In this document: piece by piece, positions 5,622 to 12,926 of the stretch
Layout of the letters: each line of letters opens with the position of its first letter
How positions within the stretch are numbered: position 1 is the stretch's first letter
Assembly: GCA_048940645.1 (NCBI GenBank)
Contig: JBHLOI010000046.1
Location: 1-24,591, forward strand
Length of the DNA stretch: 24,591 bases
Direction of reading: 5' to 3'
Source: Promethearchaeota archaeon
GTDB lineage: Archaea > Asgardarchaeota > Lokiarchaeia > Sigyniarchaeales > SOKP01
Made by a program: the position numbers and the translations under genes
The notes under the pieces: generated by a model
The model's input: only the letters and a program-made list of their open reading frames with translations
Databases searched by the model: none
Told to the model about the DNA's origin: nothing

Positions 5622-6197
5622 TTAACCAATAATGTCATCCTTTTCTATTATGCCTTCTTCCATAAGCATTAATCTAGCAACATTTTCAAAAATATTATCC
5701 ACGTTATCCCCTGTTTTAGCCGAACATTCAAAATAACCTTGTAGATTACTTGATCTTGCTATTTCAATCCCTTCTTCAGTTGGAACGGACCGTTTATCCT
5801 CTAGATCTAATTTACTCCCAACCACAATTATTGGAATATGGTTTTTAGAAGCTTTCATTTCTTCAATGAAAATTGAGAGCCAACTGTCAATATTTTTTAA
5901 GCTCACATATCTTGTAAGGTCAAACATGAATATTCCGCCCTGAGCACCTTTTACGAAACTTGGAAATAATATTTTATAGCGTTCTTCTCCCGCAAAATCC
6001 CAAATCTGAAGCGTAACTTTATGACCATCCACTTCTAAATCTTTTACACTAAGATCTGTACCAATAGTCATTTTAAGATCTTCATTAAACACTCTATCAA
6101 GATAACGATGGGTTAGAGAAGTTTTACCAACTCCTCCATCACCAAATATACAGAGTTTTAACTTAATCTTTTCATTTTTTTCCATTTGTTTAACCAC
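5622..6197 (-). CDS. Rab-like small GTPase (Ras superfamily)
   Basis: G1 GDGGVGKTS, G2 MTIGTD, G3 WDFAGEERY, G4 SKLD, G5 CSAK. Start may be GTG 6197 or ATG 6185. Confidence 0.92.
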   Translation of the reverse strand: MVKQMEKNEKIKLKLCIFGDGGVGKTSLTHRYLDRVFNEDLKMTIGTDLSVKDLEVDGHKVTLQIWDFAGEERYKILFPSFVKGAQGGIFMFDLTRYVSLKNIDSWLSIFIEEMKASKNHIPIIVVGSKLDLEDKRSVPTEEGIEIARSSNLQGYFECSAKTGDNVDNIFENVARLMLMEEGIIEKDDIIG

Positions 6198-6375: not shown

Positions 6376-6993
6376 TTATTGGTTTTTTTCTAATTTTTGT
6401 TTTTTTGTATTTTCTTTTAAAAGAATAATAGATTCCTCTCTCGCTTTTAAAAGAGATCTTTCATCCTTTCCTTCCATTTCTTTTGATAGTAGAACTTTTT
6501 CCTTTAATACCTTTTTAAAAAGTAGATATTCATCCTTTCTACTAATAAAAGGTTCTACTTTTTCTATATGGATAAATTTCTCGATAGAAGTATTTTTTCC
6601 ATTACAATTCCCTTCTGTTAAATCAAATCGATATTCTTTATATATTAAAAAGCAATGCACCATAGGTACATATGGAATGTCATACTTTTCTAAAATTCTA
6701 TTTACCCCAGTCGAGATTTCTTCGGTAAATTTATACACACCAACGTATTTATAGAGAGGTATATTTGATTCTTCTGCAAGTCCTGCAATAACTGCATGTT
6801 TAGATGTGCATGTACCCATCTTCTCTTTAAAAAATATCAATTTGTCATCATAATTCGTATTATACCCATATTCAATATTATGTACATAATCACAAGCTTC
6901 CTTGAAATTTTTAATTCCTAACTCTAAAAACTTTCTTGAAATTTGTCCCACAGGTTTAATTTTAGCGTTGGGCAAGTTTTTATATGAATCCAT
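6376..6993 (-). CDS. Hypothetical protein, transglutaminase-like (papain-fold) Cys-His-Asp family
   Basis: G-T-C-T-S-K-H, then H-C-F-L and F-D-L-T with transglutaminase-like spacing (His then Asp about 12 residues later). Confidence 0.6.
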   Translation of the reverse strand: MDSYKNLPNAKIKPVGQISRKFLELGIKNFKEACDYVHNIEYGYNTNYDDKLIFFKEKMGTCTSKHAVIAGLAEESNIPLYKYVGVYKFTEEISTGVNRILEKYDIPYVPMVHCFLIYKEYRFDLTEGNCNGKNTSIEKFIHIEKVEPFISRKDEYLLFKKVLKEKVLLSKEMEGKDERSLLKAREESIILLKENTKKQKLEKNQ

Positions 6994-7210: not shown

Positions 7211-7738
7211 CTATTTTGAGATCAATTCATTAGATTTAATCACATGATTTGCTAAGGATTCAAATGCTCTATCCACATTCAATCCATTTTTTGAAGAGGT
7301 TTTAATATAATCAACCATACCGAAACGCTCTTTAGTTTTTTTAGCGTAAATGTCAGCAACCATGGAAAATTCCTCTAAATCGCATTTAGAAGCAATTAAA
7401 ACTATTGGTAAATCTTTATACTGTTTTTTGACAAGTTGTACCCACTTTCCAATATTTACAAAACTAGTCATATTAGTAATATCGAAAAGCAATAAGGCTC
7501 CTGCTGCTCCTCTAATATATCTCTCAATCATAAATCTAAAGCGATCTTGCCCGGATATGTCCCATAAAATAAGTTGACAATTTGTCGAATCTAATTTGGT
7601 TTGCTTAGTGAGAAATTCAACTCCAATTGTCATTGTTGATGTATCAAGAAACTTTCCCTTGACATATCTATGTAAAAGTGTTGTTTTTCCAACACCTCCG
7701 TCTCCAAGAATCAGAAACTTATATGCAACTTGCTTCAT
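7211..7738 (-). CDS. Rab-like small GTPase (Ras superfamily)
   Basis: G1 GDGGVGKTT, Rab-type G2 TIGVEF, G3 WDISGQDRF, YIRGAAG (RabF4-like), G4 SKCD, G5 TSSK. Confidence 0.92.
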   Translation of the reverse strand: MKQVAYKFLILGDGGVGKTTLLHRYVKGKFLDTSTMTIGVEFLTKQTKLDSTNCQLILWDISGQDRFRFMIERYIRGAAGALLLFDITNMTSFVNIGKWVQLVKKQYKDLPIVLIASKCDLEEFSMVADIYAKKTKERFGMVDYIKTSSKNGLNVDRAFESLANHVIKSNELISK

Positions 7739-7847: not shown

Positions 7848-9989
7848 TTAGTTATCTTTTTCAACTAAATCATAAGCTGATGTAAATAGTGCCTTTTTAA
7901 CTTTCTTTTTCTTTGATTTGAAATCCACTGAAGATTTCTGATATACATTTTCGTTTAATTCCGATATAAATTGAGAAACTTTTACAAGTTGAGATTCTCT
8001 AAACGTTTGAATAATAGATGGAGATATAAGATATAACTCATCTTTTGCTCTAGTGATTGCTACATAAAATACACGTCTTTCCTCTTCAATGGCTTCTGGG
8101 TCTCCTATTACTCGACTTGAAGGAAATAAATTTTCACATAACATAGGAATAAATATAATTCGCCATTCAAGACCTTTAGCCCTGTGTATTGTTGATAAGA
8201 TCAAGGGTTTCTCATCACTTTGTAGGTCTCCAGCAATTATGGTCTTAGATTCTAAATTAGAGTAATTCAAACTTAAATTTTCTAAGAATTTTCGAACAGA
8301 TGGAAAATTTTTAGCATATATGCTTAATTGGTTTAGATCATCCATCCTATCTTGCCAATTTTCAAATTTTGCTTTAATATGATCTTCAAGAATGGGAATA
8401 AGATCCTTAATAGCCTCATCAGCTTTATCTTCAGGTGAAAAGGATAAAAGATTTTTAGTATAGGATACAAGATTTTTTATACCCACTTTAGAGATTTTTG
8501 AACCCTTAAGATTTGCCTCAATAAAAGATTTACTTGATATGTTATGAATCGGATTCTCTGTCTTAGAAATTGCTTCAAATAATTTAATCGCCGATTTAGT
8601 TCCAATTCCAGGAATTATTGAAAATATTCTCATCCAGGAGATCTCATCATAATAATTTTCTATTATCTTTAAATGAGCTAGCATATCTTTAATATGTGCT
8701 TTTTCAAAAAAAGCAACTCCTGCTCGTACTTCATAAGGAATATTTTTCGCTCTTAATTCCATCTCAACTCTTAATGAATGAGAACCAGCCCTAATCAGTA
8801 TTGCCATTTCATTTAATTCATATCCATCTGATCGTAATTTAAGGATTTGATTGGCTATAAACCGTGCTTGATCCCAATCATCACCTACATTTACTTGATA
8901 GGGTTTAATGCTATTATTTCGTGTTGCTTTCATTTTCTTTTGATATTGTTTTTTATTGTGTTTGATCGAGTTATTAGCTAATTCCAGAATTTGAGGTATG
9001 CTACGATAATTATAAGTAATCGTGTATCGTATACAGTTCTTATATTGCCTTTCAAATTTTAAGATATTTTCATAATTAGCACCCCTAAAGGCATAAATGC
9101 TTTGAGCATCATCTCCAACAGCCATTACGTTATGTCCTGGATTTTCTTGAGCGATCTTATAAATTATTTGATCTTGAATATAATTTGTGTCTTGGTATTC
9201 ATCTACTAAAATATATTTTATACGTTTTGCAACTAATTTTGCTACAAACCTTTCATCAAGTAACTTACTCCAAAAAACTAATAAATCATCAAAATCAACA
9301 AGATTATCATCTGCTTTTTTCTTTCTATAAATTTTGTAAACTTCTTGTAATTTTAAAATAACCGGTTCACTATCAAATTGACTATATTTCCATTGAATAA
9401 CTTCTCGTATCTTTTTGTTGCAATTTATGGAATATGATAAAATATCTTTACACATTGCGCTAGTGGGAAATCTCTCTTCGAGTTCTTCTTTCACCTTTGC
9501 TTGTCCAATAGCAAGTTTCATTAACCCTTTTGAATCTGTTTCGTCCATAATTATATAATTAGGCTTTAAACCCATCGTTTTTGCATACATTCTAAGAAAT
9601 CTATTAGCTATTGAATGAAATGTCCCTGCCCATATTCCCTTCGGTCTTTTTCCAAGAAGAGATTCTACTCTTTTAATCATTTCATTCGCTGCTTTATTAG
9701 TAAACGTAACTAGCATAATTTGGCTAGGTTTTACTCCTACCAATAGTAATTTAGCGACTGAATAGACAATGGTGCGAGTTTTCCCTGATCCTGCCCCAGC
9801 AATAACCAACATTGGACCTGAGATATTATTTACGACTTTGAGTTGTTCCTCATTTAAATCACTTTCAAAATCAACGTCATTATATTCTTCTTTTTTTTCT
9901 GGAATTTTTTCTTCAAAACTTTCTGCATAATCCTCATCATAAAATTCAAAGACATATTCCTCTGCATTTTTCTTTTCTTCGGAAACCAT
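7848..9989 (-). CDS. uvrD: Superfamily 1A DNA helicase, UvrD/PcrA/Rep family
   Basis: Q motif LNEEQ, AGAGSGKT, TFTNKAA, TFHS, VDEYQDTN, VGDDAQSIYAFRGA, NYRS, STIHRAKGLEW, EERRVFYVAITRAKDEL. Confidence 0.95.
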   Translation of the reverse strand: MVSEEKKNAEEYVFEFYDEDYAESFEEKIPEKKEEYNDVDFESDLNEEQLKVVNNISGPMLVIAGAGSGKTRTIVYSVAKLLLVGVKPSQIMLVTFTNKAANEMIKRVESLLGKRPKGIWAGTFHSIANRFLRMYAKTMGLKPNYIIMDETDSKGLMKLAIGQAKVKEELEERFPTSAMCKDILSYSINCNKKIREVIQWKYSQFDSEPVILKLQEVYKIYRKKKADDNLVDFDDLLVFWSKLLDERFVAKLVAKRIKYILVDEYQDTNYIQDQIIYKIAQENPGHNVMAVGDDAQSIYAFRGANYENILKFERQYKNCIRYTITYNYRSIPQILELANNSIKHNKKQYQKKMKATRNNSIKPYQVNVGDDWDQARFIANQILKLRSDGYELNEMAILIRAGSHSLRVEMELRAKNIPYEVRAGVAFFEKAHIKDMLAHLKIIENYYDEISWMRIFSIIPGIGTKSAIKLFEAISKTENPIHNISSKSFIEANLKGSKISKVGIKNLVSYTKNLLSFSPEDKADEAIKDLIPILEDHIKAKFENWQDRMDDLNQLSIYAKNFPSVRKFLENLSLNYSNLESKTIIAGDLQSDEKPLILSTIHRAKGLEWRIIFIPMLCENLFPSSRVIGDPEAIEEERRVFYVAITRAKDELYLISPSIIQTFRESQLVKVSQFISELNENVYQKSSVDFKSKKKKVKKALFTSAYDLVEKDN

Positions 9990-10068: not shown

Positions 10069-10896
10069 TTAGGTAAGCAAATATTTTTGAAATTGTAATT
10101 CATCATCTAGGAAATATTTAATATCTTGACTCTTCAGAAATTTTAGATGCTTTAGGATATCGAATAGTAAGAAAGTACCGTAAGTTTTGGAAAATTTCCT
10201 TATGATGAAACCCAAAGGTAAACCAGGGATTTTTAGCGTCCTAGATGTTTTGCATTGATAGGTCACAAATGCATTTAAAAGTCGTATCAAATCATTTTGA
10301 CATTTTAACTTTAAATTTTGATCAGTAAAACGAGCTAATTGAAATCCTTTACTCTTAAATGTATGAAGACGCAATGAATATATAGGATTCCATACAACAC
10401 TTCTCTTAATTGAGGATTTTCTATAATGAATCGTTCCGTATTGGTTCTTCCGTTTTTCATAGTAAGAGGAAAAATTTAATGCATAAATAGGCGCAATGAT
10501 CCTTTCCTTTGCCATATTAATATAATAAACCCTACCATGGTACATACTATGCAATTCCCTTTCTGAAGAAGATATTATGACTCCTTGTTCATTTTTGGGG
10601 ATTCGATAATAATAAGGGCCATTCCCATTTAATATCCAGAGTACAAAAATTCCTTTTTGATTATAATTTCTTGTTCGATTTAATAAGTCCTTTTTATAGA
10701 TCTTTGAATGCTGAATTTCTATAGCAATTTTTTTTCTATCTTCTAATTCCACAAATAAATCAATAATTTGATCTCCTATCCTATGTTCTTGCTCAATAAT
10801 TTTTATTGAATTAACAATCGGGATGTTATCATAAAGGTATTTTTTTATCTTAATATGTTCTACCGATTCAGAGAACTTAATTCCTGTATTATTCAT
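10069..10896 (-). CDS. CoiA-like PD-(D/E)XK-fold nuclease
   Basis: ES-x-x-H-x-x-x-K (ESVEHIKIK), E-x-R-I…I-D-L-F, I-A-I-E-I-Q-H-S, R-T-x-x-Y…G-I-x-V-L-W-I, matching the CoiA nuclease-like domain pattern. Confidence 0.75.
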   Translation of the reverse strand: MNNTGIKFSESVEHIKIKKYLYDNIPIVNSIKIIEQEHRIGDQIIDLFVELEDRKKIAIEIQHSKIYKKDLLNRTRNYNQKGIFVLWILNGNGPYYYRIPKNEQGVIISSSERELHSMYHGRVYYINMAKERIIAPIYALNFSSYYEKRKNQYGTIHYRKSSIKRSVVWNPIYSLRLHTFKSKGFQLARFTDQNLKLKCQNDLIRLLNAFVTYQCKTSRTLKIPGLPLGFIIRKFSKTYGTFLLFDILKHLKFLKSQDIKYFLDDELQFQKYLLT

Positions 10897-11689: not shown

Positions 11690-11924
11690 ATATATAATTT
11701 TAGAATGAATATAACTATATATTTAATAGATATTTTTATTTGATACTGAAATAAATAGTTATTTTATTTCTTTTTTTATCTTCTTTTTTATGAACTTTAT
11801 ATATATAGAATATATAGTAATTATTTTAAATTGATCAATTATTTATTTTATATAACTAAACTAATGCAATATTGATATTTAAAATTCTATATAGATGTAA
11901 TATTATAAGATAAGGGTGTTAAAA

Positions 11925-12926
11925 ATGGAATATAATATTGATACAAGACGTGTTCAACAAACAGGAGGATCTTCTTATATTATTAGTCTTCCAAAGGAAT
12001 GGATTGAAAAACATGGCATTGAAGCGAAAGATACTATAGGTGTAATTTCTCAACCTGATGGAAATTTATTAATATCTCCTTATATAAGCTCTCAAGAGTA
12101 TGTAAAGGAGAAAATGATTGATGTAGATGACATAAAAAACACGAATTTCTTATTTCGATTACTAATAGGAGCTTACATTATGGGATACACTATTTTAAAA
12201 ATTAAGACGAGCAAACCTAAGTTTGAATCAAAAGTAAGGGAGTGCGTAGAGAGCTTTATTAACATTGCTATGGGTCCAGAAATCATCGAAGAAACCAATC
12301 AGTACATATTTATTAAAGATTTACTTAATCCTAAAGAAATGCCTTTCGAAAAAACCATCAAACGTATGTATATCTTAGCTCAATCTATGCATGAGGATGC
12401 TGTTAAAGCCTTAGAAACAGGAGATAGAGAATTAGCTAATAAAGTTATCTATAGAGATGACCAAGTAGATAGACTTAATTGGTTGGTTGAACGTCAGTCC
12501 CATATAGTCCTTAGGGATATAATTTTATGTCAAAAAATGAATATTACATTAGAAGATGCGAGTAATTTTCAATTAATAAGTAAATTTTTAGAGCGGATTG
12601 GTGATCACGCAGTTAAAATAGCAAAAAATGTTTTAAAAATAGATTATAAAATCATTGACAAGAAATTATTTAAAAGTATCACAAATGCGAGCAAAATTTC
12701 ATTAGAATTACTCAATATCAGTTTAGATGCATGGCTTCAAAAAGATTTAAGGCTCGCTAATGAAAACATTGAATCAATTAAAAATTTAACAACTGCATGT
12801 GAACAGATTAGTTCAGAAAACAGTACTCAATTCGCTGTTGAAATTGGTTATATTGTTGAAAGTATAAGGAGAACAGGGGAATATTCTGCAGATATATCTG
12901 AAACTATCATAAATAATCTTATCTAA
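11925..12926 (+). CDS. phoU: Phosphate uptake regulator, archaeal AbrB-PhoU fusion
   Basis: AbrB N-terminus RRVQQTGGSSYIISLPKEW; PhoU repeats RDDQVDRL…LERIGDHAVKIA and SIRRTGEYSADISE. ATG 11925 follows a GGGTG RBS (the ORF-track GTG at 11916 lies within the RBS). Confidence 0.9.
   Translation: MEYNIDTRRVQQTGGSSYIISLPKEWIEKHGIEAKDTIGVISQPDGNLLISPYISSQEYVKEKMIDVDDIKNTNFLFRLLIGAYIMGYTILKIKTSKPKFESKVRECVESFINIAMGPEIIEETNQYIFIKDLLNPKEMPFEKTIKRMYILAQSMHEDAVKALETGDRELANKVIYRDDQVDRLNWLVERQSHIVLRDIILCQKMNITLEDASNFQLISKFLERIGDHAVKIAKNVLKIDYKIIDKKLFKSITNASKISLELLNISLDAWLQKDLRLANENIESIKNLTTACEQISSENSTQFAVEIGYIVESIRRTGEYSADISETIINNLI

Follow-up and report, generated by a model that had tools for sequence, protein, structure and literature searches.

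The window examined here, positions 1 to 24,591 of contig JBHLOI010000046.1 (assembly GCA_048940645.1) from an Asgard archaeon of the Promethearchaeota, contains a minus-strand gene for a UvrD-type helicase whose protein ends in a short peptide resembling the polymerization motif of the recombinase RadA. The open reading frame (ORF) at 7848..9989 is translated into 713 amino acids, and DFKSKKKKVKKALFTSAYDLVEKDN is the C-terminal end of the product. The gene and its parts, with the evidence for each, are as follows.

7848..9989, minus strand: gene of the UvrD/PcrA-family superfamily 1A (SF1A) helicase (P0001, 713 amino acids); Pfam, NCBIfam and 1PJR alignment.
9894..9989, minus strand: disordered acidic N-terminal region, residues 1-32; AlphaFold2 model and alignment.
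7926..9863, minus strand: helicase core, residues 43-688; Pfam, AlphaFold2 model and 1PJR alignment.
7890..7925, minus strand: Lys-rich disordered linker, residues 689-700; translation, AlphaFold2 model and tail alignment.
7863..7889, minus strand: putative RadA-mimic FxxA motif, L701-F702-T-S-A705-Y-D-L708-V709; conservation and complex model.
7848..7862, minus strand: unconserved last four residues, EKDN, and the stop codon; translation and alignment.

The core of the protein is covered by two Pfam families, UvrD-helicase (PF00580) at residues 45-317 (E = 4.8e-73; 246.6 bits against a cut-off of 23) and UvrD_C (PF13361) at residues 323-655 (E = 1.5e-53; 182.9 bits against a cut-off of 25.6). 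The catalytic motifs, Walker A AGAGSGKT (64-71), DEYQD (263-267) and the motif VI arginine R647, are invariant in 98 orthologues. PcrA (1PJR) is the closest solved relative (E = 1.1e-89), residues 43-685 of the helicase being aligned to 10-648 of its 724. The scores against the NCBIfam equivalogs PcrA (TIGR01073; 438.3 bits, cut-off 911.2) and UvrD (TIGR01075; 386 against 1144 bits) are far below the cut-offs. Additionally, a C-terminal Tudor-like domain was not found: the NCBIfam PcrA and UvrD alignments stop at 651 of 725 and 651 of 715, the alignment to 1PJR ends at its residue 648, and the AlphaFold2 model, made from the alignment of the 98 orthologues (mean predicted local distance difference test score, pLDDT, 80.8), has its last core strand at 684-688 and no folded domain past residue 688. 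Because the equivalog score and the Tudor domain both fail, the helicase is a bacterial-type member of the UvrD/PcrA/Rep family, but neither a PcrA nor a UvrD equivalog.

Past the core, 7 of the 12 residues of linker 689-700 are Lys. Residues 691-699 have a pLDDT below 50 and are followed only by a short helix at 705-711 with a pLDDT of about 67, so that the tail is disordered save for this helix, as a docking motif would be. Residues 1-32 at the other end of the protein are disordered in the same model. A preliminary description, made from the DNA alone, had placed an FTSA motif at 7875-7886 in the Lys-rich tail of a helicase without the Tudor-like C-domain of PcrA and UvrD. The translation of the ORF agrees with this position (F at 7884-7886, A at 7875-7877), and the absence of the domain is borne out by NCBIfam, by the end of the 1PJR alignment and by the AlphaFold2 model.

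The same description had cautioned that so short a motif can occur by chance. In the proteome of the window's own assembly (3199 ORFs; 3.83 Mb, 29.8% guanine plus cytosine), the pattern F.[ST]A.[DE][LIVM] occurs 14 times, and one occurrence, that of the helicase gene, lies within the last-25-residue tails; no other protein among the 3199 ORFs carries the strict C-terminal pattern. Since about 0.78 such C-terminal matches are expected per proteome by chance, a lone FxxA tail in one genome is not significant. To this extent the caution was justified, but chance is excluded by the conservation of the motif among orthologues.

The best 120 homologues (69-100% identity) come nearly all from Asgard metagenome-assembled genomes (37/37 of those with an organism label are Asgard), and every complete tail among them finishes in the same type of motif. 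In a MAFFT alignment of the 98 orthologues, F702 is kept in 97, S/T704 and A705 in all 98, and L708 in 93, while the linker columns 693-700 have an entropy of 2.2-3.1 bits. When the best homologues and genome-derived copies were taken together, 140 distinct complete tails were available for the orthologous clade, with 44-100% identity to the helicase. A motif of the type F-x-[ST]-A-x-[DEK]-L-[LIV] is present in 140/140 of these tails; by position, F is found in 139, [ST] in 139, A in 138 (2 have Gly) and L at +6 in 132. The motif lies 18-49 residues past the last core helix, and its 8-residue window is followed by -1 to 44 residues, where -1 means that the tail stops one residue inside the window. 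The linker varies in length and sequence among the orthologues, with a median K+R fraction of 0.42, and one copy has a Cys-rich, zinc-ribbon-like extension beyond the motif. A second paralogue clade (44-46% identity) keeps the motif as NFITADKLI. Because it is kept where further sequence follows, the motif is independent of the C-terminal position. This is the conservation expected of a short linear motif that is kept by selection within a disordered tail.

Three RadA/Rad51-like genes are present in the genome, on contigs C2, C40 and C104. P0279 is a canonical 332-residue RadA with the polymerization motif M-G-F-K-S-A-D-I-I-W (F84-A87). P0280 is a paralogue of 424 residues with a core 67% identical, the motif G-F-K-S-A-E-D-V-W and an acidic N-terminal extension of about 115 residues that includes C-x-x-C. 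P0281, a paralogue of 409 residues with an extra C-terminal helix-hairpin-helix domain, has the motif F-T-I-A-E-E-I. Two weaker RadB-like matches are located on contig C68. The motif hardly varies among 120 Asgard RadA sequences, in which it reads G-F-K-S-A-D-x-I-W. The consensus of the helicase tails, L-F-[KTQ]-[ST]-A-[D/I/Y]-[DE]-L-[LIV], agrees with it at F, S/T and A, often at D, and in the hydrophobic residues at +6 and +7; six of eight positions match, F and A being precisely the residues that do not vary. As the match extends beyond the four FxxA residues, the tail is, judged by sequence, a copy of the host recombinase's own oligomerization peptide and more than a minimal FxxA. A separate 139-residue ORF without a Pfam family (contig C16:10483-10902, minus strand) has a Lys-rich stretch followed by F-Q-T-G-V-K-L-K-G-F; this end is a Gly variant of FxxA, known in some RadA proteins, and may be due to chance.

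A complex model was made from the ATPase core of RadA (P0279, residues 96-332, its own motif left out) and the helicase tail (residues 680-713). The ipSAE values are 0.84, 0.84 and 0.85, against 0.00 for the highest of three controls; in calibration, the ipSAE mark was reached by 58/80 solved complexes and 2/110 mismatched pairs. At least 85% of the contacts are common to the runs, and the pLDDT of the partners is at least 57. In the model, tail residues 701-706 and 708-709 make the contacts, and the stretch 701-709 occupies the FxxA pocket on the ATPase core. The predicted contacts on RadA are residues 139, 156-157, 164, 166-167, 169-170, 181, 184-185, 187-190, 200-201, 204 and 208, and cover the strand 187-190 with which FxxA peptides pair. 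Residues 28-332 of P0279 align to 30-336 of human RAD51 (offset +2). With RAD51 numbering taken from the end-points of this alignment, assumed to be ungapped to about residue 210, the contacts include the equivalents of M158, A192, L203 and M210, which are 4/5 of the Phe-pocket residues for BRC4 (PMC4855620). From this model, the tail looks like a ligand of the RadA FxxA pocket, and binding is predicted. It had been proposed beforehand that orthologues would conserve F-x-[ST]-A-x-[DE]-L beside a diverging linker and that the tail would fit the host RadA core; the C-terminal alignment confirms the former, and the complex model, at 0.84 against the controls, is in line with the latter.

The distribution of the helicase was surveyed in 201 genomes of the same phylum, with an orthologue threshold of E <= 1e-100. 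An orthologue is present in 39/40 genomes of the window's family, in 2/3 of a second family in the same order and in 3/43 of one further family, and is found in none of 24 other families. All copies in the window's family are tailed, including the second paralogue clade; those in the other two families (38-44% identity) stop a few residues past the last core helix and are tailless. It can be seen that the FxxA tail marks one Asgard family and not Asgard UvrD as a whole. The earlier proposal of an Asgard UvrD with a RadA-docking tail is partly supported, for one family in which the motif is conserved, and does not extend to the sister Asgard copies.

A library clustered at 50% identity gave 150 representatives, of which the four closest (46-57%), and no others, have a tail of the Asgard type. 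At a greater distance, two representatives have the ends G-F-V-R-A-D-E-L and L-F-K-R-A-D-E-L. The copy with the second of these ends is on an archaeal contig beside Archease, Nre and EMC3/TMCO1 genes; its genome is of 1.2 Mb and encodes a RadA with the motif G-F-E-T-A-D-V-I-F. The FxxA tails LFKRADEL, DFVSADTLL and GFVRADEL are carried by distant UvrD homologues (38-45% identity) of an archaeal phylum with small genomes (0.7-1.5 Mb), probably DPANN, in which UvrD is present in 7/151 genomes and the FxxA end in 3 of those 7. The remaining representatives at 36-45% identity showed no FxxA-type tail; two of them were identified as bacteria of the Candidate Phyla Radiation (CPR). In core-only trees (tails removed; FastTree and IQ-TREE), there is one tailed Asgard clade (support 99), to which the tailless Asgard clade is sister (81-93), and the small-genome archaeal clade is placed elsewhere (98). 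Although the trees split the clades, an independent (convergent) origin of the tails is not claimed, because a tree in which all tailed archaeal copies form one clade is not rejected by the approximately unbiased (AU) test (p = 0.32).

Other peptides are found at the ends of UvrD relatives. The distant members P0143, P0154, P0167, P0168, P0173, P0182, P0201, P0231 and P0238 end in F-L-x-D-[IV]-D-[DE]-L, and two carriers of F-L-x-D-[IV]-D-x-L are CPR bacteria (Parcubacteria, Uhrbacteria). Further UvrD representatives end in SSB-like acidic D-D-P-F tips. Judging from these ends, C-terminal docking peptides appear to be a common means of retargeting the UvrD helicase family. F-L-x-D-[IV]-D-x-L was considered as a homologue of the FxxA motif and is treated as a different one, since D, S or N stands in place of the Ala and a change of this class, A1527S, inactivates BRC4 (PMC4855620).

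The other end of the helicase also carries a near-invariant motif, the acidic-aromatic E-E-Y-[VI]-F-E-F-Y-D-E-D-Y at residues 10-21 (9927-9962, minus strand), in which E10, F14, E15, F16, Y17 and D20 are each at least 90% conserved. This motif is present in the main clade and absent from the second paralogue clade and from the tailless copies. Its E-E-Y-V-F-E-F-Y portion fits a PIP-like (PCNA-interacting protein) pattern, x-x-x-h-x-x-F-Y or x-x-x-V-x-x-F-Y, without the Gln, and it could be a binding site for PCNA or RPA, or a second one for RadA. A canonical PIP box is absent at both ends of the helicase; Fen1 and PolD DP2 of the genome end in canonical Q-x-x-L-x-x-[FY]-[FL] boxes. The C-terminal tail as a PCNA-binding PIP box was rejected, since, unlike Fen1 and PolD DP2, it has neither the Gln nor the aromatic pair. 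Elsewhere in the genome, two DUF72 proteins and a deoxynucleoside-kinase-like protein (C43:2546-3424, C112:8625-9434 and C52:34079-34795) have the PIP-box-like ends G-Q-L-G-L-D-K-F-L-K, Q-Q-K-S-L-V-E-Y-F-K and T-Q-T-T-L-S-D-F-L-V, which suggests that they are possible PCNA clients.

In the assembly, which is 89.6% complete, the helicase at 7848..9989 is the sole PF00580 gene found. UvrB and UvrA are adjacent on contig C46, with a second UvrA-like gene on C57, and MutS and MutL are adjacent on contig C32. Most likely the helicase also serves bacterial-type excision and mismatch repair, with the RadA handle added. Because it is the sole UvrD in a genome with UvrA/UvrB and MutS/MutL, it is probably a multi-purpose helicase and not a dedicated anti-recombinase.

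Docking of the tail on RadA, whatever its outcome, is considered likely, and the view that the tail docks on RadA so that the helicase can act on filaments is held with somewhat better than even confidence. The helicase is probably an archaeal regulator of recombination filaments, previously undescribed, and such a regulator would most likely be a stripper. RadA binding is predicted by the complex model; filament stripping, in an anti- rather than pro-recombination direction, is an inference.

A possible course of events is the following. Phe702 and Ala705 would enter the FxxA pocket on RadA's ATPase core, and the motif would pair with the neighboring beta-strand, in the manner of a BRC repeat or of the adjoining RadA subunit. 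In a RAD51-type filament, the pocket left free is the one at the 3' end, and because a 3' to 5' motor would arrive from there, the helicase would meet a protomer with an empty pocket. The tail, on its flexible basic linker of about 10-35 residues, would dock and hold the motor at the filament end; the motor would then peel off RadA, the next pocket being exposed with each protomer removed. Alternatively, the peptide may compete with the subunit interface or cap the released monomers. PcrA and UvrD are known to translocate 3' to 5' on single-stranded DNA and to remove RecA filaments, and Srs2 removes Rad51 filaments and binds Rad51 (PMC4999840). In Srs2, a BRC-variant motif at residues 836-860, just past the helicase core, promotes the binding of Rad51 (PMC5239998). 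The FxxA motif of FIGNL1 is needed for its full RAD51-dismantling activity, and the FxxA-bearing partner SWSAP1 would occupy the 3' end of the filament (PMC6440994).

Several observations weigh against the use of the tail on RadA filaments. Binding to RadA is modeled only, with unrelated peptides rather than point mutants as controls, and the pass of the model may partly reflect memory, because many FxxA complexes with RadA or RAD51 have already been solved (1N0W and the RadA-peptide series). The tail departs from the RadA motif at +4/+5 and at +7, where it has L and RadA has W. Sister Asgard copies work without any tail, and no neighborhood link to recombination genes is seen in the window. 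As the AU test does not reject one tailed clade, convergent gain, which would have counted strongly in favor, is not demonstrated. Furthermore, the only UvrD of a genome with UvrA/UvrB and MutS/MutL could use its tail in those pathways, and the C-terminus of bacterial UvrD contacts other partners. The tail may accordingly bind UvrB, MutL, RNA polymerase, RPA/SSB or PCNA in replacement of the lost Tudor function, with only a superficial likeness to RadA, and the varied C-terminal peptides of the UvrD family (F-L-x-D-[IV]-D-x-L; D-D-P-F), together with the possible memory in the complex model, speak for such a partner. However, the agreement with RadA at six of eight positions and the restriction of invariance to exactly F and A count against it, the tail has no PIP box, and the motif is found in archaea, none being seen in more distant representatives, two of them identified as bacteria. 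The tailless sister copies, moreover, indicate that UvrD function as such needs no tail. Another partner is thus judged unlikely. Less probable is an intramolecular or self-association element, either an autoinhibitory helix on the 2B domain or a segment pairing with the acidic N-terminus. UvrD-family helicases are regulated by 2B-domain conformation and by dimerization, which counts for such an element, as do the co-occurrence of the N-terminal motif and the basic linker in the main clade and the moderate pLDDT of the tail helix in the monomer model. The invariance, though, falls on F, S/T and A and does not trace a helical face, FxxA is retained in the second paralogue clade without the N-terminal motif, and both the linker and the N-terminus are modeled as disordered; the idea is very improbable.

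A functionless FxxA, arisen by chance and retained by descent, would agree with the single occurrence found per proteome where 0.78 is expected. It is hardly credible, since the persistence of the motif in 140/140 distinct tails, down to 44% identity and beside a freely varying linker, is incompatible with neutrality. A more serious question is the outcome of docking, which may be pro-recombination or neutral. In that case RadA would recruit the helicase to displacement loops or post-synaptic filaments, where RadA would be cleared from heteroduplex; as variants, the invading strand would be unwound for synthesis-dependent annealing, or the peptide would cap free RadA monomers. The docking evidence is the same, nothing in the sequence fixes the outcome, and FxxA is used by mediators (BRCA2, SWSAP1) as well as by anti-recombinases (FIGNL1) (PMC6440994). 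Nevertheless, the UvrD-family members known to act on recombinases (UvrD, PcrA, Srs2 and FBH1) all antagonize filaments (PMC4999840), and the polarity fits stripping, in that a 3' to 5' motor would meet the free pocket at the 3' end. Such an outcome is decidedly unlikely, and the stripping of RadA filaments by a helicase docked through its tail is preferred.

The neighbors of the helicase in the window are two Ras-family GTPases, a CoiA-like nuclease, a methyltransferase, PhoU and carbamoyl-phosphate synthase. The CoiA-like nuclease (PF06054, E = 6e-14) at 10069-10896 on the minus strand lies 79 nt upstream of the helicase, and a paralogue 33% identical to it is on contig C120. A conserved module of this nuclease with UvrD was considered and rejected: the adjacency is found only in four genomes of the same genus, with helicases at least 84% identical, and a search of the 1.5-kb flanks at the other loci did not find the nuclease. 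Because the adjacency is limited to these four genomes, the CoiA-like gene does not belong to the feature. Immediately downstream of the helicase gene, the minus-strand ORFs 5622-6197, 6376-6993 and 7211-7738 comprise two Ras-family small GTPases (E = 4e-47 and 6e-46) flanking an ORF of 205 residues without a Pfam match, and the three may form a GTPase-plus-regulator cassette of a kind that is typical for Asgard genomes. The plus-strand ORF 11916-12926 encodes a protein of 336 residues with an N-terminal MazE/AbrB-type domain (PF04014) and a PhoU domain (PF01895).

In the literature on archaea, no description was found of a link between UvrD and RadA, of a UvrD with a RadA-binding motif, or of an anti-recombinase acting via a defined RadA-binding motif; Hel308 is the one candidate negative regulator of archaeal recombination met in the reviews consulted. 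A UvrD bearing a RadA peptide offers a simple hypothesis for how archaea may restrain recombination. A bolder proposal is that the lineage turned a bacterial UvrD into a functional analogue of Srs2 by adding RadA's polymerization peptide to it, with the PIP-like N-terminal motif binding PCNA, so that the helicase would bridge PCNA and RadA like Srs2, and, in its strongest form, that this clade is the direct source of eukaryotic Srs2/FBH1. This proposal is very doubtful; if its strongest form were true, FxxA-guided filament stripping would predate eukaryogenesis.

Compared with known systems, the helicase core is that of bacterial PcrA and UvrD (1PJR, 2IS4), relatives at the level of 37-43% identity. 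These have a Tudor domain, in place of which the Asgard helicase has a putative recombinase-mimic peptide. We know of no bacterial counterpart of such a peptide on PcrA or UvrD. The motif of BRCA2 BRC4, FHTA (1N0W), and that of RadA/RAD51 likewise have F and A at i and i+3 and S/T at i+2, and the contacts predicted for the tail fall on the pockets for Phe and Ala and on the beta-strand beside them. The tail is nearer to RadA's own F-K-S-A-D-x-I-W than to BRC4. A second, LFDE-type module, as in BRC repeats, was not found, nothing being conserved after the motif in the 98-orthologue alignment, and the helicase has a single motif at its end whereas BRCA2 is a mediator with a repeat array. These comparisons suggest that the tail is a clean case of a short linear motif evolving via self-mimicry of an oligomerization interface.

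Among eukaryotic proteins, Srs2 likewise has a UvrD-type SF1A core followed by a non-globular C-terminal region with a BRC-variant Rad51-binding motif. Both would thus combine a UvrD-family core with a recombinase-binding element downstream, which in the Asgard protein is predicted. The tail of Srs2, however, has about 400 residues, with an extra Rad51-binding region and PCNA- and SUMO-interaction motifs, whereas that of the Asgard helicase has about 25 residues and one motif, and, unlike Srs2, the Asgard helicase probably also serves bacterial-type nucleotide excision repair and mismatch repair. FIGNL1 (FxxA, F295/A298) and RECQL5 (BRC variant) also join a motor to a recombinase-binding handle for the dismantling of filaments (PMC6440994). 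They are eukaryotic and have an AAA+ and a RecQ motor, respectively, and their motifs are internal, unlike the tail of the Asgard UvrD. By analogy, the helicase looks functionally like Srs2, RECQL5 and FIGNL1, a motor with an FxxA/BRC handle. If the complex model is right, this eukaryotic design is also present in archaeal relatives of eukaryotes, on a bacterial-type helicase in a genome that holds three RadA-like genes.

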